Notes under the pieces: generated by a model | What the model saw: the letters and a program-made list of their open reading frames with translations, nothing else | The model's database searches: none | What the model was told of the DNA's origin: nothing | Position numbers and translations under genes: made by a program | From: a virus | Taxonomy: Duplodnaviria; Caudoviricetes | Virus record (IMG/VR): IMGVR_UViG_3300031992_000033 | Span: 32,001-96,000 of that record | Strand: one strand, 5' to 3' | DNA: 64,000 bases | Shown here: piece after piece, positions 1 to 59,242 of the stretch | Layout: each line of letters starts with the position of its first letter | Position numbering within the stretch: the first letter of the stretch is position 1

Positions 1-1049
1 TTGTCGTCCGACTTTACAAACGTAGAACAATAGTCCTTATAATATGGACACTTAGAACTATGACCGCATAATGCAGAACAGAAATAACTATCATTCTTTA
101 TGTCTTTGGGTGGATAATTCTTTTCGTCTTGACCACGATCCTTGTAAGACTTAATCTGTTTGTCCACATATTCTAGTGTCTCATCAATAACACATTGATT
201 ATAATCATAGTAACGGACATACTGCTTAACTTCAAACTGGTCTCTTAGTTCCGCTGGAAGTCCAGCAAGTGAGTTTTCTTGCACAGCCTGATCAACTAAT
301 AGGTCTAATTCAATCTCGTCGATATTGACCGCCTGAGGAGGATCTAGAAGGTATGGGCGTATTTGTGATACATAATTACGCCACTCACAAATTTTTTCCT
401 TGGTCTTTCCATTCTTCTGTTTCCAACTTACCACGCAGTACTTAAGCATAACCCATGCTAACTTATTGATCTTGTATCCCTCTTGCTCTTTGGCTTTAGC
501 ATAAAGAACCAACTGTCTTCCCGCCTCAATAAGATGATCCCCTTTGAATTGACTACTCGTTTTCCAGTCGAATATACTGATGACCTTATTTTCTTCATCA
601 TCGATTCTTGTTAAATCAATATACCCCTGTACATAATCATCATCCGAAACCTTATAGATAACTAACCGCTCTGTTTCAAATTTTCCATCAGGCACTTGAA
701 AGTTCTGACAGAAATTTGTCATATTCTTTATCCAGTTATCACGAATTGATGTGCCGCCATTGCGATCCTTGGGAAAATCAAGTCCTATTATATCTAAGTC
801 TTCAATACTGTTGTTTAGATTTTTTATAAGCACATCTGTTGGCGTACTATTATCTATGATATCCTGTAAGGTATCATGCATAACAGATCCAAGAGCAGCC
901 CATATATTATCCTCGCCTCTGTCTTTAAGGACATATGTTATATACGCTGAGTAAGGACACTGGTCAAGAGTGTTAAGTCTAGAGATCGAGTAGATATTCT
1001 TTCCTTGCTCTCTTAATTCAGTCAACCTTGCGTCTTCTATTCGTTCCAT
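1..1049 (-). CDS. PD-(D/E)XK nuclease, AddB/Cas4-like with probable 4Fe-4S cysteines (runs off window, not in ORF track)
   Basis: Manual translation from ATG 1049: MERIEDARL..YSISRLNTLDQCPY..GSVMHD..GYIDL..FDWKTS..QLVLYA..FCSALCGHSSKCPY. Confidence 0.8.
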   Translation of the reverse strand, partial: MERIEDARLTELREQGKNIYSISRLNTLDQCPYSAYITYVLKDRGEDNIWAALGSVMHDTLQDIIDNSTPTDVLIKNLNNSIEDLDIIGLDFPKDRNGGTSIRDNWIKNMTNFCQNFQVPDGKFETERLVIYKVSDDDYVQGYIDLTRIDDEENKVISIFDWKTSSQFKGDHLIEAGRQLVLYAKAKEQEGYKINKLAWVMLKYCVVSWKQKNGKTKEKICEWRNYVSQIRPYLLDPPQAVNIDEIELDLLVDQAVQENSLAGLPAELRDQFEVKQYVRYYDYNQCVIDETLEYVDKQIKSYKDRGQDEKNYPPKDIKNDSYFCSALCGHSSKCPYYKDYCSTFVKSDD

Positions 1050-3534: not shown

Positions 3535-5004
3535 TTAACGACTTCTTGAGAAGTTATCAAACGCTACGTCTATCCAGCCAATCTCTTTCATCCTCATAAA
3601 TGCCATATCAAACTGTACGCAAATCTGTGGTGAGACTTCGCCCGATCTGTTCTTAGGCACAAAGAGAATTATGTAGTGCTTCTCAGGATCAAGGTCAAGT
3701 AATACTTTGATTTTCTTTCCGTCTTCTGTGGTACGATAGTTGTAGGGGTGCAAGTCCTCATACTCATTGTTGAATACAGGACGGAACATAATACATGCGT
3801 GACATGTTTCAGCAATGCCTCTTGACTTACCAATGGAACTAAGATCGAGATACTTTCTTGTGAGAGAATCAGGCGCTAACTGGAATGTACATACCAAAGC
3901 AACCTTGGTTTTCTTTGCCATCTGGAACAGTGTCTCAGCGCATGCGGAAAATTCTGCCCACGCTCTTTCCGACGCTCCGTCTGCGGGCTTAAGCACATCA
4001 TAAATTACTATAGGATAACCAATCTTTGAATACTTAGTGATAATCTTACGTACTGCCGCTGTGCTGTAATCCTGAAGTTCTACAAATCTTACATGCCCCT
4101 TAAGATTTTTGAGCCAATTTGCCGCCTTTCTAAGACCTTCTTTTTGTTCAGGTGTAAAATGTCCAAGACCTATCTTCTTTCTGTTTAACTTCAACTCCTT
4201 ACCATTGAATTCGGGATTATTAAATAGTGCATAAGTGAGCATAAGTTGGCGATACTCTTTACAAGTCTGCTCGTTGCTAATAACAAGAACGTTGCGACCC
4301 TCTTCCAGATTTTTCATAATGATAATAGGGACAGATCCACTTGTTTTACCCTGTCCTATGGGAGCACCAAGCAAGGTCATTGTCCCCGCATGTAAACCAC
4401 CAAGCATATAATTAAGTGTATTAAGTCCGAGAGGATATCCCTGTTCAGCGCCCGTATCAAGTTCTTCTATGAAAGCATCGTTGTCTTCGTTGACATCTTC
4501 CGTATGGATCTTTTCTACGCCAGCAACCATACAATCACTTATCTGGTACTCGATATAGTCATAACATTCTTCGGCTGTCATATTCTTAAACTTGCCAACC
4601 TCTTTAATAGACATAAGACCCTTGAGATATAACTTAGTGATAAAGTTATTTTTCGCAAGGCTGTCATAATATGTTTCAACGTTATTCTCGTTGACAAGCG
4701 CAAGCATTTCGTGTAGTGTACCCAAGCCGCCATACTCGTCGAATTTCTTTTTAGCAAGATTCTTATCGGAGAGGTAGGTAACGATAGCCATATCGTCGAA
4801 CGTATTATATCCAGCCCTTTCAAGTCCAAGAGCAAGTCCATAATAGAATTTGCCAGCATCGGTCAGAATATCATCTTCGTCTGCTATCTTTTCCTTGTAT
4901 AATCCAATGAGGTCTGGATCTTTATAAAGACTAATAATGAAATTACATTCTGTTTCTTGCCTACCCTCAGTTAATTCCTGAGGTAAGTCTTTAATATTTG
5001 TCAT
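3535..5004 (-). CDS. dnaB: replicative DNA helicase (DnaB-like), YorI-like
   Basis: Walker A GAPIGQGKT, VISNEQ, IYDVLK, TFQL and KNRSG motifs. Confidence 0.88.
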   Translation of the reverse strand: MTNIKDLPQELTEGRQETECNFIISLYKDPDLIGLYKEKIADEDDILTDAGKFYYGLALGLERAGYNTFDDMAIVTYLSDKNLAKKKFDEYGGLGTLHEMLALVNENNVETYYDSLAKNNFITKLYLKGLMSIKEVGKFKNMTAEECYDYIEYQISDCMVAGVEKIHTEDVNEDNDAFIEELDTGAEQGYPLGLNTLNYMLGGLHAGTMTLLGAPIGQGKTSGSVPIIIMKNLEEGRNVLVISNEQTCKEYRQLMLTYALFNNPEFNGKELKLNRKKIGLGHFTPEQKEGLRKAANWLKNLKGHVRFVELQDYSTAAVRKIITKYSKIGYPIVIYDVLKPADGASERAWAEFSACAETLFQMAKKTKVALVCTFQLAPDSLTRKYLDLSSIGKSRGIAETCHACIMFRPVFNNEYEDLHPYNYRTTEDGKKIKVLLDLDPEKHYIILFVPKNRSGEVSPQICVQFDMAFMRMKEIGWIDVAFDNFSRSR

Positions 5005-5513
5005 GTGTAATTATTCTCCTGTAAAAACTTTGATATATCATGAATCTCTCCACGATTTGTTGGTGCTTGCATTGACTCTACTTCCTCAGAAGTTATTGCA
5101 TTGTTGGAAATGTGTTGTAATTTTTGCTCCTTATCCATCTTCTTCTTAACATCATTTATACTGTTTGTTATGATAGCCATTACATAAGATACTCTGTTGT
5201 ATTCTGAAGCAAAATCTTTATGACTAATAGAATAAACTATATCAGCACGCTTGCTAATAATAGTCTGTAAAACGACTTTGTAACCATAGTAACTATATTC
5301 TTTCAGTTTCTTAGGCACAATTGTAGGGAACTTTTGCCCGTCCGAATATCCCAAAATGTTCCCTAACTCTTCGAGACATTTCTGGCGGTACATCTTCTCG
5401 TCCGAAATGCATTTAAAAGCCTCCGCCGATGAGTAGTACTTACCATTGGAGGCTTTATATGCTTCGTTCGAGGGGACGAGTTCGCCAGTATCTTGACACT
5501 TAACATTTCTCAT
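5001..5513 (-). CDS. hypothetical replication protein (YorH position, possible helicase loader)
   Basis: Synteny between the AAA ATPase and the helicase. Confidence 0.5.
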   Translation of the reverse strand: MRNVKCQDTGELVPSNEAYKASNGKYYSSAEAFKCISDEKMYRQKCLEELGNILGYSDGQKFPTIVPKKLKEYSYYGYKVVLQTIISKRADIVYSISHKDFASEYNRVSYVMAIITNSINDVKKKMDKEQKLQHISNNAITSEEVESMQAPTNRGEIHDISKFLQENNYT

Positions 5514-5525
5514 CCCCCGATCTCC

Positions 5526-5735
5526 TTAATTCTTCTTAATTAAATCTCTATTTACAAGTGAAATGGTAACGCTATTATCTGCCTCAACAATTGTAGAGAA
5601 TACCTCTCTACTCAGAATACCTCTCGTTGTATCATCCTTGCATCCCTTGTCAAGCAGAATCTTTTCTCCGTCTTTAATCGTGATCTTCTGATCCTTCGCT
5701 CTGAGTACCCTCAACTGATCGTCTAACTTCATCAT
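5526..5735 (-). CDS. hypothetical protein
   Basis: ORF with AAGGAG RBS. Confidence 0.5.
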   Translation of the reverse strand: MMKLDDQLRVLRAKDQKITIKDGEKILLDKGCKDDTTRGILSREVFSTIVEADNSVTISLVNRDLIKKN

Positions 5736-5979
5736 CGTTATCTCCTTTACATACCTTGAATCCGTAACTCTGGTCGTACCCAATAGATTTGAGCACCTCT
5801 TTGAGTTCGGTCATTTCATTTTCATCTTTAATTTTCATCATTACAACACCGCTCTCCATAAATGCGTTGATCCCGCGAGCCGACAGTTTTTTAACTGCCG
5901 ACTCTTTAACGGTTTCTTCGCGCACGTATGCGACTGGTGCTTTTTCTTCGGTTTCTATAACCTTCTTTTTTCTAGCCAT
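5674..5979 (-). CDS. hypothetical protein
   Basis: Start overlaps the upstream stop (TAATG). Confidence 0.55.
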   Translation of the reverse strand: MARKKKVIETEEKAPVAYVREETVKESAVKKLSARGINAFMESGVVMMKIKDENEMTELKEVLKSIGYDQSYGFKVCKGDNDDEVRRSVEGTQSEGSEDHD

Positions 5980-31408: not shown

Positions 31409-33014
31409 ATTAATCCTCCTCTCCATAATCAAGATCGAGATTCTTTGCGGTGAATTTGAATTCATTAGGATTGAAAGTGACGGGCAGTTCGTATATCCTG
31501 TCTTCAATAATTCTGCCGTGATCATCTGTTATTACTGCGGCATATACTACTCCGTCATAATCATATGCCACTTCAACATTTTGGTCATAGAATTCTCTGA
31601 ACTCAATCATCAAGAAGTCCCAGTAATTATCCCTCTCGTCCTCATAATCTACAAGGAACTGTTTCATAGCGGCTTCGTATTCAGTTTCTGTCATCTTAAT
31701 AATTCTAATTTCAGGTCTCATCGTTTTTGTCCTCCTTATCTTTCTATTAGTGTAGGGTTAATCTGGTGATACTTAGAACTGGGCTTACGATCTCTGATCT
31801 CAATTTCATCAAAAGCCCACGCGCCTACGATTTCCATACAAGTGCCGCTATAGTCTCCGCCTCCAAGTCCATTGCCGCACGCGGTAAGAATAGGCAGTGG
31901 ATGTATGCACCAAATTGATTCGTGCTTGACACCTTCGCCGTCAGTCCATGATTCCTTCCACTGGTTTGCCTTATAGTACTCGTCAAAGTTAATGTACTGT
32001 TTCTTAGTTAAGTTGACGATATACTTACCAGAGAGAACGTGATCGGCAGCGGGCGTATGATATTTAATTACGCGACCATTTCTTTTCCAAGGATTATACT
32101 TTACATATTCATTGGGAAGATCTGCATAGTCTCCTACCCACGCTATCTGAGCCGATCCATTCTTAATTATCTCCTCGGTAATCGCATCAACAAACTGGTT
32201 GTCAACATAACTATGCTCCATAAGTTTAGCCATAGTATAGTAACTTCCTGTTTGCTGAACTTCTTCGCGTCTCCATTCCGACAAATTTTCCAGCCCCTTC
32301 TTATCGGGCTTAACATATCTGTTATAGTACTTAGCCTTTCCGTTCCTTAAGATTGTTACCATATAATACTGTCCCATATTATTTGTCCTCCTTTATTACT
32401 CTATAACCTCTTCTTTCAAGTGCATTTATCAACTCGTTGTCTGATGCTCTTACTTGCCAGATATCCTCTTTATCATAGTACTCCCAGTCGTTGTTTTCTA
32501 TAATGTATACACCCTTAAAATCTTCATCGTTGTCTACACATTCTATTTCTCCGTTTGCGATATACTCGTTGTCATCGAGAGCGGTAAGAAAAATGTCAAT
32601 GTATTCATAAAAAGCATTATCCAATGTCTTAGAAATAGTGATGCAGTTATCATCTACGGCATCAAGAATACATTCCGCCCACGAACTTAAAGCGGTGTCA
32701 TTTAATTTCTTATAAATATTGTATGCTGCCTGAAGGGACAAAGGGTTGTTTAAGTGAATATCTCCGCTGCAATATATTCTTTCCATAATTTATTTCCTCC
32801 TTATATTCTTTCTGTTTCTCTTAACCAGTCAATGCAGTCCAGCAAACTCTGGAACATATAATGTCCCTGTGCCCACGTACCAGTGTTGGGGTTATACAAG
32901 TAGGCAATACAATAATCACTCTTCCTTTTAAGAATAGTATAATCGCCTATTGTGTCGATCACCTTATAACCCTGTTCTGAATATTCGTTGTAATCGCCCA
33001 TGTTTATTACCTCC

Positions 33015-51353: not shown

Positions 51354-54227
51354 GTGATAACGCTGGGTAATTATGGCTACAAGATCAACAATTACGAAGC
51401 GGGTTCAATTTATGAGGTTGACTGCGGCGTAAGAAAGAAATATGATACCAAACCAGCGATGCTAACCAATTCGTTATTCTTAGACTTCTTAAAGGCAAAT
51501 GGTCTGACCACGAAGAACGATAAGTTTACGCGGGATATCATTTGCCTAAACTTTAATTACGGGAGTCGCACATACGATAACGAAATGGCGCGAATAGATG
51601 TAGCGCTGGCGGAAAGCCCCGACAATGAATACCTTAAAGCACTTAAGGCAGAGTGCGAGGCTAACAAGGACAAGTTTGATTGTAAGAGCGCGGATGAAAT
51701 CCGCCTCAAGTATTACCAAGATGGTGTTACGATCCATTATAAGAACGGAGATGTAAAATATAAATACTTGTACCGCACGGCTGGTAAAGCCAAGGTGGGG
51801 TCATGTATGTTTATCAAGCAAAGCCTGTATAAAAAGGCTCATAACTTTCTTTATATGGGACTTAGTCTTCCAAAACACGATGCCCCCATAACGGAGTTTG
51901 GTGCGTATACATCTCTTGTAACATCAACAATTATAGACAAGGTCGAGATAAATCCAGAAGACATAGTAATATTAAAAGACGTAAGGTCGGAATTCAAAAC
52001 CAATGTGGTGAGCGTCGAGGTAGAGAATGGTAAGTGCAAGGCGGTGTACCGCAGAGACTACACGTTGGGTTGCGATATGTTCGACGGACAGGCGCTGATC
52101 GACTTGTCAATATGTCCCGAATGGACAAATGGCTATGTGCTGTTGCGACATCATTTCACAAAAGCGGCGGCATTTGCCACAGATATACAAGGCTTTCTCA
52201 AAGACCATTTTGGTCAGGAATATGATACGGCTTATCTGACGGATATGTGGGGTAATAAACATTTAGCCAAGAACGTGAAGGTAATTACCACCAATAATGC
52301 CTGTAAGTGGATTAAGTACGACGTACCCTATGAGACATGGTGTGACAAGGTGCGGGAGAACGGATCAATGTTCGGCATTGTAAAGACGGCACACCCAAGC
52401 AAGTATGGAGACTACCAGAGAATGTCATACCAAATGGTGAACGCCCTAAGCAATGAAACCATAGATGAGGTTGCGTCGCCAACAAAGGATTATGTAAAGG
52501 CACTCAAGACCGATTTAAATACATATCTGGAATTTCTGAGAAGAAACGCCAACTTCTCAAACGACTATGAGGCACTGTTGGCAATATGGACTCAGGATCA
52601 TACGTTTGAACAAAGTGAGTACTTTCGTGAGAGAAAGCAAAAGATCATATACGACTACACTACAAGCGTAAAGACTGGCAAGTTGTTACAGAACGCGGAC
52701 AATCTTGTAATATGCGGAAGTCCATACGCAATGCTATTACATTCAGTCGGTATAGACGTAAGCAAAGATCCTACGTTTGAAGTAGAGGATGATGCAATAC
52801 AATGTTACTCGGAAAGATTTGAGGACGGGGAATACTTAGCAGAGTTTCGAAATCCGTTTAACTCTCAAAACAATTTGGGCTATTTGCATAATCATTTGCA
52901 TCCGCTGATTAAAAAGTATTTTAGATTAGGCAAGTTGTGTATAGCGGTTAATCTACAAGGAACAAGTTTCTGTGACAGAAACAATGGCTTAACAAACTGG
53001 GCTAGCGTACAGAAATGTGCGTGATAAACACTTGGTGAAAATTGGAAGGCTAAGTATATGATTAATTTCCAAGTCAATTTTGGAAAGGACACTTATTGTT
53101 AAAAGAAAATCTTGGAAAAATATTTAATCATATATACGCTAATCAATTACGAAGCCTGTATTGCCAATAATAACTACAGGAACGTTTAACGACTAGGTGG
53201 TGAGTAGGCAGCAATAATCCACCCACGAGCGCCGAGCACCTGAACAGATAATGCTGAAGGTGATGAGATAGTCTGACCTTATAGGAAACTATAAGAAATA
53301 TCAGATAAAGAACTGATATGATAACATAATGCAGATCAAGACAGCGACTCAATATACACGACTAACGCGCCAGCGATAGTCGAACATGCGAAGTATTGTT
53401 ATAAGGTTTATCCAACGATAGTAAATAATATACCGCAGAGTAAAAAGAAATATGATTCAGACATGGCATCCTTTGCGGCAATGGATAATGCACTAAGCGC
53501 TAGCCAGAGAAATATTGGTGAATCAAGTAATCTGGCTCAGGTGTGCTTAACATATACGTACAATTTTAAAGATCAGAAGTTTAAAGACTATGCCTGTATT
53601 TTGGCAGTGCTTGCTCAAGCAGCAATAGATAGTAGCAAACGTACGTTCTCTATAGACATAACAAATGAAATAAAGCGCATACGCGAAGATATGGGGATTA
53701 AGGACAATAAGTATCCACCATTTTGGCAACAGATCCGTAAGGGCTTTCCTGTAAACAGAGTTAATTTTAAACTTGACTCCCCCATGTGTAGACTTTACAA
53801 AATGGATTTTGAATCCTACAAACCAAAAACCGAGACATTGCCAACGTCAACATTCTTTGAGAAGTATCCGTTGGATATGACCAAGAAGATGTCGCGCAAT
53901 GTAGAAGACTTAATACAGAAGTATCAACTGGAATTGCTAGATAGCAGAATAGAAAAAGAAGATAGCGAGAATAATTCGGAGACATTTTTACTTTTAAGAG
54001 AAGACTTCGATCAACTCGTAAATGATATAAGGCGCATAGCCCTCCCCAGTAAATATGTTGGATTGTTTAGTTGGTTAATTGACAGGGCTTTTAGAATGAC
54101 GCCACAACTTGAACAGCAAACCGCTGGGTTAAAAAGCAAACTAAATAAGAATAGAGCAATCTTATTAAGGGTTTTATATGAGGTGAACCCCGAAGCATTA
54201 CTCAAATGCTTCTCCAAAAATCTGTAA
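51354..54227 (+). CDS. yonO: YonO-like single-subunit DNA-dependent RNA polymerase, spliced: join(51354..52989,53332..54227), 843 aa
   Basis: YRTAGKAKVG, FDGQALID, LLRHHFTK and FRNP motifs; splicing restores NNGSDQDSD (DxDxD); IGESSNLAQ and AIDSSKR in exon 2. Confidence 0.85.
52990..53331 (+). mobile_element. group I self-splicing intron (342 nt, no homing endonuclease)
   Basis: Exon ends in U and intron ends in G; P1 UGGCU/GGCUA with U.G; IGS CUG pairs exon-2 CAG (P10); P7 elements AACGACUA and GAUAGUC; P9 hairpin with GAAA loop; reading frame restored. Confidence 0.92.
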
Positions 54228-54373
54228 AAATAGTGTTTTTTCAGACCCCCCTCACTACATTTTGTAGTATAGAACCCGCATGAATACTGGAACTTGGTCA
54301 TTTCCGAAAAATGACTATATGAAGAGGGTGGCACTTGTGTCGCCCTCTAAAGAATAAAACGGAGGAAAATGAA

Positions 54374-55006
54374 ATGAAAATTAAAGATAAACTTGTTGAC
54401 CTATCTTCGCTGATTGATAGCGACGAGGTAGGAACTTGGGAAAAACAACAGGCTGGATTTTTGCAGAACAGGATTATTGTCTTCGATAACCTTGTAGACG
54501 AGGCGGCAATCAGAGACGTGTCCGCTTGGATCTTACAGTGGAATATGGAGGACACCTATCTTGCAAAGAAAGACAGAGCGCCAATAACTCTTATTATACA
54601 TAGTTGTGGCGGAGATATGTATGTTGCGGGAAACATAATGGATATAATCAAGGCATCTGAAACGCCAGTTAGGGCGATTGGACTTGGACTTATTGCATCG
54701 GCATCATACTTGATCTATCTGGCTGCACACGAGAGATATGCGTTTACTAACTCTATCTTTTTACAGCATGACGGAGGCATTGATCTGTCAAACTCAAATA
54801 ACAAGGCAAAGGATACTATGAAGTTCTTTGACTTAATGAATGACAGGATCAAGCAGTTTATACTTGACAATACCATTATGACCGAAGAACAGTACGATTC
54901 AAACATTGATCGCGAATGGTATATGTATGCGGATCAGGCAAAGGAACTTGGAATCGTCCACAAGATCATAGGTGAAGATATAACTTTAAAACAGATTTTC
55001 AAATAA
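54374..55006 (+). CDS. clpP: ClpP-family serine protease
   Basis: IHSCGGD, IASAS (Ser), LQHD (His), DREWYMYADQAKELGIV; RBS GGAGG. Confidence 0.88.
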   Translation: MKIKDKLVDLSSLIDSDEVGTWEKQQAGFLQNRIIVFDNLVDEAAIRDVSAWILQWNMEDTYLAKKDRAPITLIIHSCGGDMYVAGNIMDIIKASETPVRAIGLGLIASASYLIYLAAHERYAFTNSIFLQHDGGIDLSNSNNKAKDTMKFFDLMNDRIKQFILDNTIMTEEQYDSNIDREWYMYADQAKELGIVHKIIGEDITLKQIFK

Positions 55007-55018
55007 TTGGAGGAATTA

Positions 55019-56206
55019 ATGGAAATAATGGAGATGCTTCAGGAGTTTGATATTTCTGAAGAAGAATACGAGAAGTGTCTTTCCGATATTACAGATAAAC
55101 TCGATGGTGTTTCTGATCTCGAATGGGAAGATATTAAAACAAAATACAACTTGCCCTATAATACTGACGTACTTAGAAAAGCAAATGGCACAATTTTTGG
55201 TGGCTATTGGGTTAAGAAGTTTCTTTCCAGAAAGAATAAAAATCTTGACAACAATGCGATAATTGACATCCGAAAGGAGAAGCAGAAACTCTTTGACGAG
55301 AGGGCTGCCATCATGAAGATTAAGCGCGAAGAGGCAAGGTTTGAAGAAGATTTCTCAAAGATGTGTAATCTGATTGCTGAGACTGGCAAAGAAAAGTATA
55401 AGCCAGTGGCGGTTAAAAATATCGCTGGAGATACTGACCTTATTGTATGCTTATCGGATCTCCATATTGGACAGGACATTAATTCCTGTGGCGGTGTTTA
55501 TAATTCAGATATTGCCAAAAAAAGGCTCGATGATTACTTTGAAGAGATCGTTAGAATAGGCAGAAGAAATGCGTCTCAGGATGTATATGTGCTTTGTCTT
55601 GGAGATAGTCTTTCTGGCAACATACACGTTACTACTCAACTTGAGAATAGAGAAAATGTGGTTGAGCAAATTGTTAAGGCTTCAGAACTTGTGTCTGAAT
55701 TTATATTTAAACTTAGCGAAGAGTTTAATCATGTATATATTAATAGTGTAAGTGGTAATCATTCTCGCGTAGGACTTAAGGATAATGTTCTTAGAGGAGA
55801 AAGGCTTGACGACCTTATTCCTTGGTACGCTAAGGCAAAACTTGGTCATATCAAAAACATTACATTCATTGATAGTTCCGACAACTTTGATTCCACTATA
55901 GGCAAGATTATAGTACGTGGTAAGGAGTACTGGCTGGTACATGGCGACTATGATAGTTTTGATCAGAACGGCATATCAAAGTTGGTGCTCATGATTGGAC
56001 ATAAACCTTCTGGTATATTCTACGGACATTTACATTCAAATGCATATCAGAGTATTAATGATATCGAAATAATCCGTAGTGGTTCTTTATGCGGTACAGG
56101 AGATGATTATACGATGAGTAAGCGTATACAGGGATCTCCCTCTCAAATGGTTGTAGTCGTGGATGAGAGGGGCGTTGCGTCCTTCAATCCCGTTACTTTT
56201 AATTGA
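55019..56206 (+). CDS. metallophosphoesterase, YonJ-like
   Basis: SDLHIG, LGD, GNHSR, VHGD and GHLH motifs. Confidence 0.85.
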   Translation: MEIMEMLQEFDISEEEYEKCLSDITDKLDGVSDLEWEDIKTKYNLPYNTDVLRKANGTIFGGYWVKKFLSRKNKNLDNNAIIDIRKEKQKLFDERAAIMKIKREEARFEEDFSKMCNLIAETGKEKYKPVAVKNIAGDTDLIVCLSDLHIGQDINSCGGVYNSDIAKKRLDDYFEEIVRIGRRNASQDVYVLCLGDSLSGNIHVTTQLENRENVVEQIVKASELVSEFIFKLSEEFNHVYINSVSGNHSRVGLKDNVLRGERLDDLIPWYAKAKLGHIKNITFIDSSDNFDSTIGKIIVRGKEYWLVHGDYDSFDQNGISKLVLMIGHKPSGIFYGHLHSNAYQSINDIEIIRSGSLCGTGDDYTMSKRIQGSPSQMVVVVDERGVASFNPVTFN

Positions 56207-56268
56207 TCATTTTTCTTTCCGTTAGCGTTCCTTTCACTGCTGTCCTAGCGGTGGAGGGGGCGCAATCT

Positions 56269-56337
56269 GGGGCTGGCGGCAGAGGCGTTATTCTGATAAC
56301 GCGCCAATTTTTACAGGTTCAACTCCTGTTAGCCCTA
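56269..56337 (+). tRNA. atypical tRNA-like element (no D-stem, irregular anticodon loop)
   Basis: Acceptor GGGGCTG/TAGCCCT, T-arm ACAGG-TTCAACT-CCTGT, central GCGTT-ATTCTGAT-AACGC. Confidence 0.5.
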
Positions 56338-56354
56338 TTATTAATATTGCAGTT

Positions 56355-56380
56355 TAGCGGGGAAGTTCCCCGCTATTTTT
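56355..56380 (+). terminator. intrinsic terminator
   Basis: TAGCGGGGA-AGT-TCCCCGCTA followed by TTTTT. Confidence 0.75.
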
Positions 56381-56400
56381 GATTTAAAGGAGAAAAACGT

Positions 56401-57480
56401 ATGGCAACGAATTTAGTACCCGCGCCTACTGGCGACGAACACAAACTCGGTGTCGCAGAAATGCGTAAGCGGTATGACAAAATCGCCACTACGTATAATG
56501 AAATGCTAGAATGCGACATCATGCATTGCGCTAAGTGCGACAACTGGTTTCGCAATACTGGAATGCATAAGGGGTTTTATCAGGATTCCAGATTTAAGTC
56601 TGGGTTCTTCCCCATTTGCAAAGAGTGCGTTCAGATGATGGTTGAACAGCGCAAAAGGGAGAGTGATCTTCCAAATGAAACAAAAGAAAGTGTCAAGTTT
56701 ATATTACAGTTAATGGATAAGCCTTACTACGATGATCTTTATACGAAGTGTGTAGAAGGCGTAAAGAACGGAATGAACGATCCAACAAATAAAAAGATGT
56801 ATGTGTCGCCGTTCAAAACCTATATTACACAAGTACAGAGTCTGCCTAATTATAAGGGACGTAAGTGGAAGGATAGTAAATTTGGTAATTCAGAAGAGCG
56901 CCCTGTCGAAGAACATTACGATGAGAGCGATGAGATATTCGTAAATGCAAAGAAACATTTTGGCAACGAATATACTTTACCAGATTTATATTATCTTGAA
57001 ACTGAATATGCTGACTGGTGTGATAGATATGAATGTAATAGCAAGGCGCAAGAAGAGTTGTTTAAGAACATTGCCTTTACTCAACTTGAATTGCACAAGG
57101 CGCGTTTGAATCATGAGAGCACTGATAAACTCACCGCTACCTTGCAGAAACTTATGGAGACTGGTGATATTACGCCCAAACAAAACAAGAACGATGTTAC
57201 GGGTGGAGTAGAATCTTTCGGACAACTTATACAGAAGTTGGAGGAAACACGTCCAGTAGCCGAAATAGATCCTGAACTTAGAGACGTAGATAAAATTGGA
57301 TTATATATTAGCGTATACTTCTTGGGGCATTTGTGTAAGATGCTTGGCATTAAAAATAAGTACTCTAAGATGTATGACGATTATATGCGACAATATGCTG
57401 CTACCCGTCCTGAGTTTAGTGCAGATGAGGATTCGGAAGACATATTCAATAAAATCTACGGCGGCTCATTAGATGAGTGA
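56401..57480 (+). CDS. probable terminase small subunit (YonG position), N-terminal Zn finger
   Basis: CxxC..CxxC; overlaps the terminase large subunit start. Confidence 0.6.
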   Translation: MATNLVPAPTGDEHKLGVAEMRKRYDKIATTYNEMLECDIMHCAKCDNWFRNTGMHKGFYQDSRFKSGFFPICKECVQMMVEQRKRESDLPNETKESVKFILQLMDKPYYDDLYTKCVEGVKNGMNDPTNKKMYVSPFKTYITQVQSLPNYKGRKWKDSKFGNSEERPVEEHYDESDEIFVNAKKHFGNEYTLPDLYYLETEYADWCDRYECNSKAQEELFKNIAFTQLELHKARLNHESTDKLTATLQKLMETGDITPKQNKNDVTGGVESFGQLIQKLEETRPVAEIDPELRDVDKIGLYISVYFLGHLCKMLGIKNKYSKMYDDYMRQYAATRPEFSADEDSEDIFNKIYGGSLDE

Positions 57481-59242
57481 TAAAAAAAGTTTTTCTCAGA
57501 TACAGCAAGAAAAATACGAAAACCTAATGGAGGGTGTCAGCATATGGGCGGCGTTTTATCGTGCGAATCCTCAACGTCTCGCTGCTGAATTTTTGAATAT
57601 ACAGTTGGGTATATTTCAAAAGATCTTGCTATATGTGATGAATTTATGTACAGTCTTCAACTGGATTGCAAGCCGCGGACTGGGCAAAACCTACTTAATC
57701 GCACTGTATTGTGTGATTAGATGTATACTCTATCCCGCTACTAAAGTATGTGTGGCGTCTGGAGTTAAGTCTCAGGCTGCTGAAATAATTGGCAAAATAG
57801 AAACAGACTTTATGAAACTTCACGATTGGGGTAGTAGAAATCTTGCAAATGAAATTGAAGAGATAAGCACATCAATAAATAATCCACATGTTAATTTTAA
57901 AAACGGATCATGGATTAAAGTTGTTACCGCGAGCGACAATGCTCGTAGTAATCGTGCAACTATAGTGATTATAGACGAGTCAAGAATGGTTAAGAAAAAG
58001 ATTGTAGACACTGTTCTTAGAAAGTTCTTGACCTCGCTTAGAAAACCACCCTATATGGATCTTCCTCAATACAAAAGAAATCCTAAGTATCAGGAAAGAA
58101 ATATAGAAATGTACATGACTTCTGCGTACTACAAGAGTTCGTGGATATTTGAAAAGTGTAAGTCCGATGCAGCTCTTATGCTTGACGAAACAAAGAAATA
58201 TTTCTGTTGTGGTCTTCCGTATGAGGTTGGTATTGAAGAGGGTATTTTCTCGCAAGAAGCCGTTGAGGACGAAATGGCAGAAGCGGATTTTGACCCCATA
58301 TCTTTTAGAATGGAACGTGAGGCTTTGTTCTATGGCGAAGCCGAAGATGCATTCTATAAATTTGATGAAGTGTCTAGTTGTAGAATAATAAAGAATGCCT
58401 TTCTTCCGTTAGAATTTTATGAAAAGCGTGGAATTAATGTGCCTGATCTTGCAGAAGGCGAGCGCCGCATATTATCCGTGGACGTTGCGCTTATGGCAAC
58501 AAAGGCTACCAATAACGACGCCACCGCAATAGAAATTAATATTGCAACGCCAAGCAATAATGGTATGGCGTCACACATTGTTTACGTCGAAACTCTTGAG
58601 GGTAAGACAACTGATGAAGTTGGTATTATCATTATGAGATATTTTAATCATTACAAATGCACAGATCTTGTGCTTGATACTAACGGACTAGGTCTTGGCG
58701 TATACGACTTTATTGCGCGTCAGCAATTTGATGCAGAGACAGGAGAAACCTATGACGCTATGTGTAGTTGCAATGATGTAACTATGGCTGAACGCTGTCA
58801 TGATCCTAATGCAAATAAATGTGTGTGGACTATTAAGGCGTATGCACAGGAAAACTCGGAAATGGCAACAGCACTTCGTGCGGGAATCCAAACTGGAAAT
58901 TTGTCATTGCTTATTAACGAGTATGATGCTGAGCAAAGTATCAAAAAGATATCTGGTTATGGTACAATGACGACGGAAGAAAGAGTGAAGTTGCTTATGC
59001 CTTATGCACAAACAACCGCTCTTGTTAACGAAATGGTAAATCTTGAGGGTAAGATTATAGACAATAAGGTTAAACTTAAGGAACATTCTGGAATGCGAAA
59101 GGATAGATTCTCAAGTCTTGAATATAATTATTATGTCGCTCAGGAAATTGGTAGAGAAAATCAACGCAAAGGAAATCAAGATAAACAAACGTTAGTTGGT
59201 CTTCTCGCTTCTTCTATCAGGAAGAGTTCTATTTTAAAGTAA
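57473..59242 (+). CDS. terL: terminase large subunit, YonF-like
   Basis: ASRGLGKT Walker A, IIDES Walker B, ILSVDVA and KDRFSS nuclease motifs. Confidence 0.93.
   Translation: MSDKKSFSQIQQEKYENLMEGVSIWAAFYRANPQRLAAEFLNIQLGIFQKILLYVMNLCTVFNWIASRGLGKTYLIALYCVIRCILYPATKVCVASGVKSQAAEIIGKIETDFMKLHDWGSRNLANEIEEISTSINNPHVNFKNGSWIKVVTASDNARSNRATIVIIDESRMVKKKIVDTVLRKFLTSLRKPPYMDLPQYKRNPKYQERNIEMYMTSAYYKSSWIFEKCKSDAALMLDETKKYFCCGLPYEVGIEEGIFSQEAVEDEMAEADFDPISFRMEREALFYGEAEDAFYKFDEVSSCRIIKNAFLPLEFYEKRGINVPDLAEGERRILSVDVALMATKATNNDATAIEINIATPSNNGMASHIVYVETLEGKTTDEVGIIIMRYFNHYKCTDLVLDTNGLGLGVYDFIARQQFDAETGETYDAMCSCNDVTMAERCHDPNANKCVWTIKAYAQENSEMATALRAGIQTGNLSLLINEYDAEQSIKKISGYGTMTTEERVKLLMPYAQTTALVNEMVNLEGKIIDNKVKLKEHSGMRKDRFSSLEYNYYVAQEIGRENQRKGNQDKQTLVGLLASSIRKSSILK

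Follow-up and report, generated by a model that had tools for sequence, protein, structure and literature searches.

Group I introns are already known from phage genes, including those for RNA polymerases. In the Pseudomonas jumbo phage PhiPA3, an intron of this kind with the HNH protein gp210 lies in the gene for an RNA polymerase beta subunit (Birkholz et al. 2024, PMC11620839), and in the Bacillus phages SPO1, SP82 and Bastille introns in the DNA polymerase gene encode the nicking HNH endonucleases I-HmuI and I-BasI. Here we describe an element in the gene of a single-chain RNA polymerase related to YonO of SPbeta, found in a 64-kilobase (64-kb) stretch of viral DNA (Duplodnaviria; Caudoviricetes; positions 32,001 to 96,000 of IMG/VR record IMGVR_UViG_3300031992_000033), the whole of which we call the window and whose own numbering is used below. 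At 52990-53331 on the + strand, inside a Ser codon ahead of the catalytic DQDSD motif, lies what we take, with a probability of roughly 85%, to be a self-splicing group I intron that is a selfish, decayed homing element and not a regulatory switch.

The locus resembles that of PhiPA3 in that the intron sits in the phage's own RNA polymerase gene beside conserved catalytic aspartates and has relatives that carry HNH endonucleases; it differs in that PhiPA3 is a nucleus-forming jumbo phage with a multi-subunit enzyme, whereas the polymerase here is of the single-chain YonO type and the endonuclease has been lost. PhiPA3 also calls for a correction to a first-pass annotation of this DNA, which had placed phage group I introns mostly in genes for nucleotide metabolism, DNA polymerase, terminase or lysin: RNA polymerase genes are not avoided (PMC11620839). 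With SPO1, SP82 and Bastille the present family shares HNH-type open reading frames (ORFs) and a position in the active-site region of a phage polymerase, and window positions 53261-53328, from the 3' strand of helix P8 to P9.1, are 84% identical to the Bastille-group (I-BasI) intron. The host gene in those phages is, however, that of a DNA polymerase, and the likeness covers only a portion of the ribozyme core.

The enzyme itself is homologous to YonO of SPbeta (Forrest et al. 2017, PMC5467207), which it resembles in length (843 against 839 amino acids), in a two-barrel fold, here a predicted one, and in being encoded upstream of structural genes. It differs in sequence (~23% identity), in the triad, which reads DQDSD here and DNDGD in YonO, and in being interrupted, as SPbeta yonO is not; the activity and promoter use of the window's enzyme are predictions. 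The Asp triad of YonO is essential for catalysis, and YonO transcribes the late genes of SPbeta (PMC5467207). A limited literature search returned no paper linking YonO with introns or homing endonucleases.

Homing introns usually sit in the most conserved motifs, and they pass through a cycle of invasion, endonuclease decay and intron loss, exemplified among phages by T4 nrdB and the defective I-TevIII that it carries. In the gene studied here, an ORF-less intron stands beside ORF-carrying and empty alleles in close relatives, with a remnant of the ORF still visible. Decay here came as one clean deletion of ~485 nucleotides (nt) and not as accumulated point mutations.

The interrupted gene and its restored reading frame

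The polymerase gene is present in the window as two ORFs in the same frame on the + strand, 51354-53024 (556 amino acids) and 53463-54227 (254 amino acids). The unspliced frame closes at a TGA at 53022-53024, 11 codons inside the intron and ahead of the Asp codons at 53334-53348. Excision of 52990-53331 (342 nt) yields a coding sequence of 2532 nt for 843 amino acids (...CDRNNG-S-DQDSD-SIYTTN...), with a predicted exon junction in which AAT GGC T is joined to CA GAT CAA GAC AGC GAC, so that the predicted spliced junction sequence is AATGGCT/CAGATCAAGAC, the stroke marking the junction. In what follows, L-numbers (L003, L007, L008 and so on) denote homologous loci and WIN the window's own intron. 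In about 60 intron-less homologues, the exon 1 and exon 2 matches are 3 bases apart and leave a one-codon gap between ...NG and DxDSD; the gap codon is usually Ser, with Cys in L002. The nearest intron-less ortholog, L007, has an ORF of 843 amino acids, with amino acid identities of 93% and 85% in the two parts. Because some 60 intron-less alleles share the exact 3-base gap and L007 has the full length of 843 amino acids, the junction is fixed to the base. The first-pass annotation had read the gene in the same way, as a polymerase split into ORFs of 556 and 254 amino acids, with an unspliced stop at 53024 ahead of the aspartates and a removal of 52990-53331 that restores G-S-D-Q-D-S-D in an 843-residue protein, and had proposed alignment to intron-less homologues as a check; all of this stands.

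Exon 1 (51354-52989, +), recognised from its ORF, phrog_8308 and tblastn, comprises 545 codons and the first base, T, of the Ser codon. Exon 2 (53332-54227, +), recognised by tblastn to homologues, begins with the CA of that codon and continues with the Asp triad (GAT 53334-53336, GAC 53340-53342, GAC 53346-53348), 292 further codons and a stop. Purifying selection is evident on both exons, which in comparison with L008 are ~76% identical in nucleotides but 88-91% identical in amino acids, which points to continued translation of exon 2. We rejected the idea that exon 2 is a separately translated second subunit, its first ATG at 53463 lying downstream of the triad. Two minus-strand ORFs, 52892-53092 (66 amino acids) and 53143-53352 (69 amino acids), overlap the structured intron RNA and are probably spurious.

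A ribozyme fold under selection

Rfam family RF00028 matches 52999-53295 (+) over its full model (1-253) with 58.5 bits against a gathering score of 50 and an E value of 2.9e-12; it is the sole Rfam family found in the 64-kb window, and the match is the sole one of its kind in the 123.7-kb virus record. RF00028 gave no match in the intron-less controls L007 and L010. Folding of 52982-53340 to minimum energy gives z = -4.4 relative to shuffles and recovers P1, P2, P3, P4, P5, P6, P7.1, P8, P9 and P9.1.

All elements of the intron (52990-53331, 342 nt), whose ends come from the intron-less alleles, lie on the + strand. P1 (52985-53004) pairs the exon sequence UGGCU (52985-52989) with the guide GGCUA (53000-53004) and places a U-G wobble at the splice site, and P10 pairs CUG (52997-52999) with CAG at the start of exon 2 (53332-53334), by means of a guide that varies with the exon in relatives. 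The P2 hairpin (53005-53022) carries a GAAA tetraloop, and the in-frame TGA at 53022-53024 overlaps its 3' end. P3, formed by CUUGGUG (53031-53037) and CGCCGAG (53230-53236), is backed by Rfam, the fold and compensatory changes. P4 (53040-53045 with 53143-53148) and a long P5 extension, which contains the remnant of an HNH gene, occupy 53040-53148, followed by the P6 hairpin CCUGUA/UACAGG (53155-53180; strands 53155-53160 and 53175-53180), which rests on Rfam and the fold. P7 (53191-53273; GACUA 53191-53195 with UAGUC 53269-53273), present in the RNAalifold consensus, encloses P7.1 (53196-53200 with 53219-53223), the 3' strand of P3 and P8 (53237-53241 with 53258-53262), and the 3' part (53278-53331) comprises P9 (53278-53295, GAAA loop), P9.1 (53298-53319), a 3' tail and the terminal G53331. 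P1, P7, P9, P10 and the terminal G had been named in the first-pass annotation, and each could be located; its observation that the intron holds no endonuclease ORF holds for the + strand, and the covariance-model search that it had suggested gave a score above the cut-off.

Comparison within the family bears on whether these pairings matter. All 12 members have U as the last base of the 5' exon and G as the last base of the intron. The P1 guide tracks the exon, being GGCUA or GGCCA with UGGCU, GCCC with GGGU (L003) and GGUC with GACU (L014, L059, L086), and so does P10, which is of the UCAU type with the 3' exon GUGAU in L003 and UAG with UUG in L086. In P3, 7/7 pairs are preserved through changes on both strands in 11 family members. 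For the 3' domain (P7, P7.1, P8, P9 and P9.1), we first aligned the last 212 nt with MAFFT and drew the helices by hand; divergent members were misplaced in part of that alignment, and we replaced it by a shorter one and the RNAalifold consensus. Double changes occur there in 22 of the 30 pairs of RNAalifold's own consensus on the MAFFT alignment, and 93.4% of the cells are paired, compared with 72.3% in shuffles (0/500 reach the observed value) and 33-43% when the partners are slid by 1-3 columns. P7 is invariant across the family and hence uninformative on covariation. At the gathering threshold Rfam passes only the ORF-less L014 among the relatives (69.5 bits), the ORF-carrying relatives and L071 scoring below it. 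The fold of the intron has clearly been under selection.

A YonO-type host protein

Neither exon nor the intact ortholog has a match in Pfam or NCBIfam, and a PDB sequence search likewise gave none. Exon 1 matches phrog_8308 (E 3.5e-71), and tblastn reaches yonO of SPbeta-like phages at ~24% identity as well as homologues in gut phages. L007 finds SPbeta YonO by BLASTP with E 5e-11, and hhalign of a 16-sequence profile against SPbeta YonO gives a probability of 98.45% (E 4e-15, 502 columns), aligning NGSDQDSD with YonO QFDNDGD and A-I-D-x-A-K-R with T-I-D-F-A-K-T. An AlphaFold model of L007 built on 47 sequences (predicted local distance difference test, pLDDT, 87; predicted template modelling score, pTM, 0.83) retrieves by Foldseek RDR2 and QDE-1 (E 1e-13 to 1e-15), P32 gp64 and the virion RNA polymerase of crAss-like phi14:2 (E 1e-5 to 1e-6), and also P74 gp62; all of these are two-barrel RNA polymerases, a comparison made for the model as a whole. 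The columns Gly-x-Asp-x-Asp-Ser-Asp and Ile-Asp-x-x-Lys are invariant in 47 homologues. Profile and predicted fold alike indicate that the host protein is a distant relative of YonO and a two-barrel single-chain RNA polymerase, in agreement with the YonO-type phage polymerase named in the first pass.

The genes downstream on the same strand (54335-59242, +) encode a ClpP-like prohead protease, the phrog_284 exonuclease, an unknown protein and a large terminase that bears additional domains. Because the protease, exonuclease and terminase genes lie there, the polymerase gene heads the packaging and structural arm, and by analogy with YonO it is plausible that the window's polymerase transcribes late genes.

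Descent from an HNH homing intron

L008 carries at the identical site an intron of 829 nt with a 183-codon ORF that contains an HNH_3 domain. By blastn, WIN 1-137 matches L008 intron positions 1-139 and WIN 105-337 matches 591-824, so that the two introns are 88-90% identical on either side of a deletion of ~485 nt (L008 1 to ~106, then 591-824). It follows from this two-sided match that the window's intron is the same intron as that of L008 minus ~485 nt of ORF. What is left of the HNH gene lies in the P5 extension, where a ribosome-binding site (53082-53089) and the last 11 codons with the stop (53094-53127) can be recognised; the former start codon is now ATT. The best reading of these sequences is that the window's intron is an HNH-endonuclease homing intron that has lost its ORF and is now late in the homing cycle.

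The flanking exons are 76-77% identical to those of L008 in DNA, below the 88-90% of the intron. Such a difference fits lateral spread of the intron, to which constraint on the RNA fold could contribute. A co-conversion tract, which would raise exon identity to L008 near the junction, gave no clear signal: the first two upstream 60-nt segments are 92% and 87% identical to L008, and intron-less L010 is similar at 90% and 85%.

Related introns at four sites in the gene

The homologue set comprises 74 loci and three GenBank gut-phage records, gathered by tblastn of a phage collection and by an IMG/VR scan with the C-terminal part of exon 1. The 74 loci hold five introns at the window's site (site A), two at site B and three at site C, and ~64 loci have no intron at any of these. 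Among the eight closest loci (89-93% amino acid identity), six are intron-less, L008 has its HNH intron at site A, and L014 has at site B, 12 nt downstream and within the Ser codon of D-Q-D-S-D, an ORF-less relative of 241 nt. This type of phage thus works without the intron, given that six of the eight closest and ~64 of the 74 loci lack it. Site C is the invariant A-I-D-x-x-K motif. Further copies were found by scanning for the P2 hairpin, whose 18 nt are identical in 22 viral contigs: site-A introns in L082, L090, L091, L100 and L102, a fourth site, A2, in the codon after the first Asp (L086, L093, L097), and a site-C copy in L087, a homologue only ~22% identical. Three of the four sites are within 12 nt of the DxDxD codons, and the introns thereby occupy the two most conserved motifs of the gene, since the triad and Ile-Asp-x-x-Lys columns are those invariant in the 47 homologues. 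The intron ORFs vary, with HNH in L008, L003 and L067, GIY-YIG-like with NUMOD3 in L029, L059 and L065, and none in WIN, L014 and L071. A tree of the 3' domain (~150 nt) interleaves introns of different sites, for instance site-A2 L086 with site-A L082 (support 0.93), which is suggestive only.

Individual copies illustrate this range. Related introns occur at L014 3602-3842, L059 2121-3141, L086 3489-4370 and L032 2054-3092, at three further sites that lie inside D-x-D-S/D, behind the first Asp and within the LAQ..AID motif. Each of them stands after G(G/A)CU, to which a nearly constant guide, GGUC, corresponds. The nearest GenBank homologue, L003 (MT837385, from a human faecal phage; 53% amino acid identity), has two introns in its RNA polymerase gene, an HNH-carrying one at the window's site (4161-4884) and a compact one at A-I-D-x-x-K (~5169-5444, Rfam 77 bits). 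In L005 (Bacillus phage vB_BsuS-Goe11, MT601272), the annotation divides yonO into yonO_1 and yonO_2. Compared with SPbeta yonO, the Goe11 gene has a 1289-nt insertion (4460-5748) inside T-I-D/F-A-K, the same motif as site C. This insertion encodes a GIY-YIG and NUMOD3 protein, is preceded by a U in the exon, has G as its final base and offers a candidate P1 (CGAU/GUCG). Its group I match is weak (18.9 bits, E 0.043), and we take it for a probable intron, so far unreported. Goe14 likewise carries a yonO_2 annotation, and the preprint on SPbeta relatives that describes Goe11 and Goe14 makes no mention of introns.

The P2 hairpin also occurs in contigs that have no RNA polymerase match nearby (L084, L089, L094 and L099; L088; L092 and L095; L101). 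These probably hold copies of the same intron lineage, in which case the family would not be limited to the RNA polymerase gene. In L091, a ROOL RNA (1-470, minus strand; Rfam RF03087, 184 bits, cut at the contig end) lies close to the RNA polymerase gene.

Explanations for an intron in the catalytic centre

In the explanation that we favour, guanosine would attack after U52989, the exons would be ligated after G53331 and the 843-residue polymerase would result, while the unspliced message would give a 556-residue fragment without the triad, making splicing obligatory for active enzyme. The intron would descend from an HNH-endonuclease homing intron through the subsequent ~485-nt deletion of its ORF, with a splicing-competent core kept. 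Its position in the catalytic motif would stem from persistence at the most conserved and least mutable DNA targets, and not from regulation; self-splicing of the RNA and the absence of a dedicated regulatory role are both inferred. Several points weigh against this explanation. Splicing by the window's copy is predicted from its sequence, and sequence data are by themselves unable to exclude regulation. An exact search of metagenome contigs for the 36-nt spliced junction gave 0 matches, an uninformative result, as the records are mostly DNA. Some helices of the MAFFT alignment are mis-registered in divergent members, and the apparent membership in subgroup IA, taken from the extra P7.1 hairpin, is an informal assignment.

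Alternatively, the introns might serve as weapons or as a defence when phages compete, an idea that we hold possible but rather improbable. Relatives that carry an endonuclease would cleave co-infecting phages without an intron at their catalytic codons, and the ORF-less window copy would serve mainly to keep its own RNA polymerase gene from being cut, since it disrupts the target and an occupied site is uncuttable. Related introns at the same site do carry HNH or GIY-YIG-like ORFs, and PhiPA3 gp210, for which such a role has been shown, offers a precedent in an RNA polymerase gene beside conserved aspartates (PMC11620839). Against this stand the missing endonuclease of the window's intron, the lack of a known cleavage site and a use of Ser codons that shows no sign of selection for resistance: intron-less alleles revealed no enrichment that would indicate avoidance of the TCA codon, AGY accounting for 13/39 (33%) at the site compared with 40% in the rest of the gene.

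A broader proposal, which we advance tentatively and with no greater confidence than the last, is that one intron lineage has repeatedly colonised the YonO-type catalytic centre at its four sites, by RNA-guided site switching (reverse splicing) in addition to endonuclease homing, with the endonuclease-bearing copies possibly acting as weapons. Switching of this kind is suggested because each of the sites comes after G(G/A)CU, a sequence that the near-constant guide GG(U/C)C matches. The site outside the triad, in the invariant I-D-x-x-K motif, is the point where Goe11 yonO is split.

The first-pass annotation had proposed that splicing gates late transcription and could act as a checkpoint dependent on guanosine triphosphate (GTP) and Mg2+; on this view the efficiency of splicing would time the appearance of active polymerase. 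Splicing would indeed be obligatory for an active enzyme, the gene directly precedes those for the protease, exonuclease and terminase on the same strand, and by analogy with YonO its enzyme probably transcribes late genes (PMC5467207). We nevertheless regard a checkpoint as very unlikely, as most relatives, including the six close ones, do without the intron, which is itself the deletion derivative of an HNH homing element, and as related introns at four sites with different or no ORFs form a pattern of mobility and not of conserved control; nor did Rfam find an aptamer or other ligand-sensing RNA beside the intron in the window. Group I introns moreover bind guanosine at micromolar levels, far below cellular GTP. 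Sensing of GTP is unlikely for this reason, binding being saturated far below the cellular concentration.

Likewise very unlikely, and the least probable of all, is an intron that does not splice, leaving the polymerase gene a pseudogene or expressed as two pieces: the reliance of the splicing claim on sequence and an Rfam score of 58.5 that is only moderately above the cut-off would allow it, but the core helices are intact and differ from L008 in compensatory ways, both exons have open frames and conserved protein sequences, an exon 2 product begun at ATG 53463 would miss the triad at 53334-53348, and the virus record is estimated to be 98% complete.

Implications

Taken as a single instance, the element is unremarkable: a mobile intron in a conserved motif of a gene essential to the phage. 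Its consequence for annotation is that pipelines cut the gene into two ORFs labelled "hypothetical", both lacking the catalytic triad, and because of this YonO-type polymerases are under-called in gut and rumen phages; known intron sites allow the parts to be joined correctly. The family of introns at the triad could serve as a natural system in which to study the switching of intron sites and intron-mediated competition between phages.

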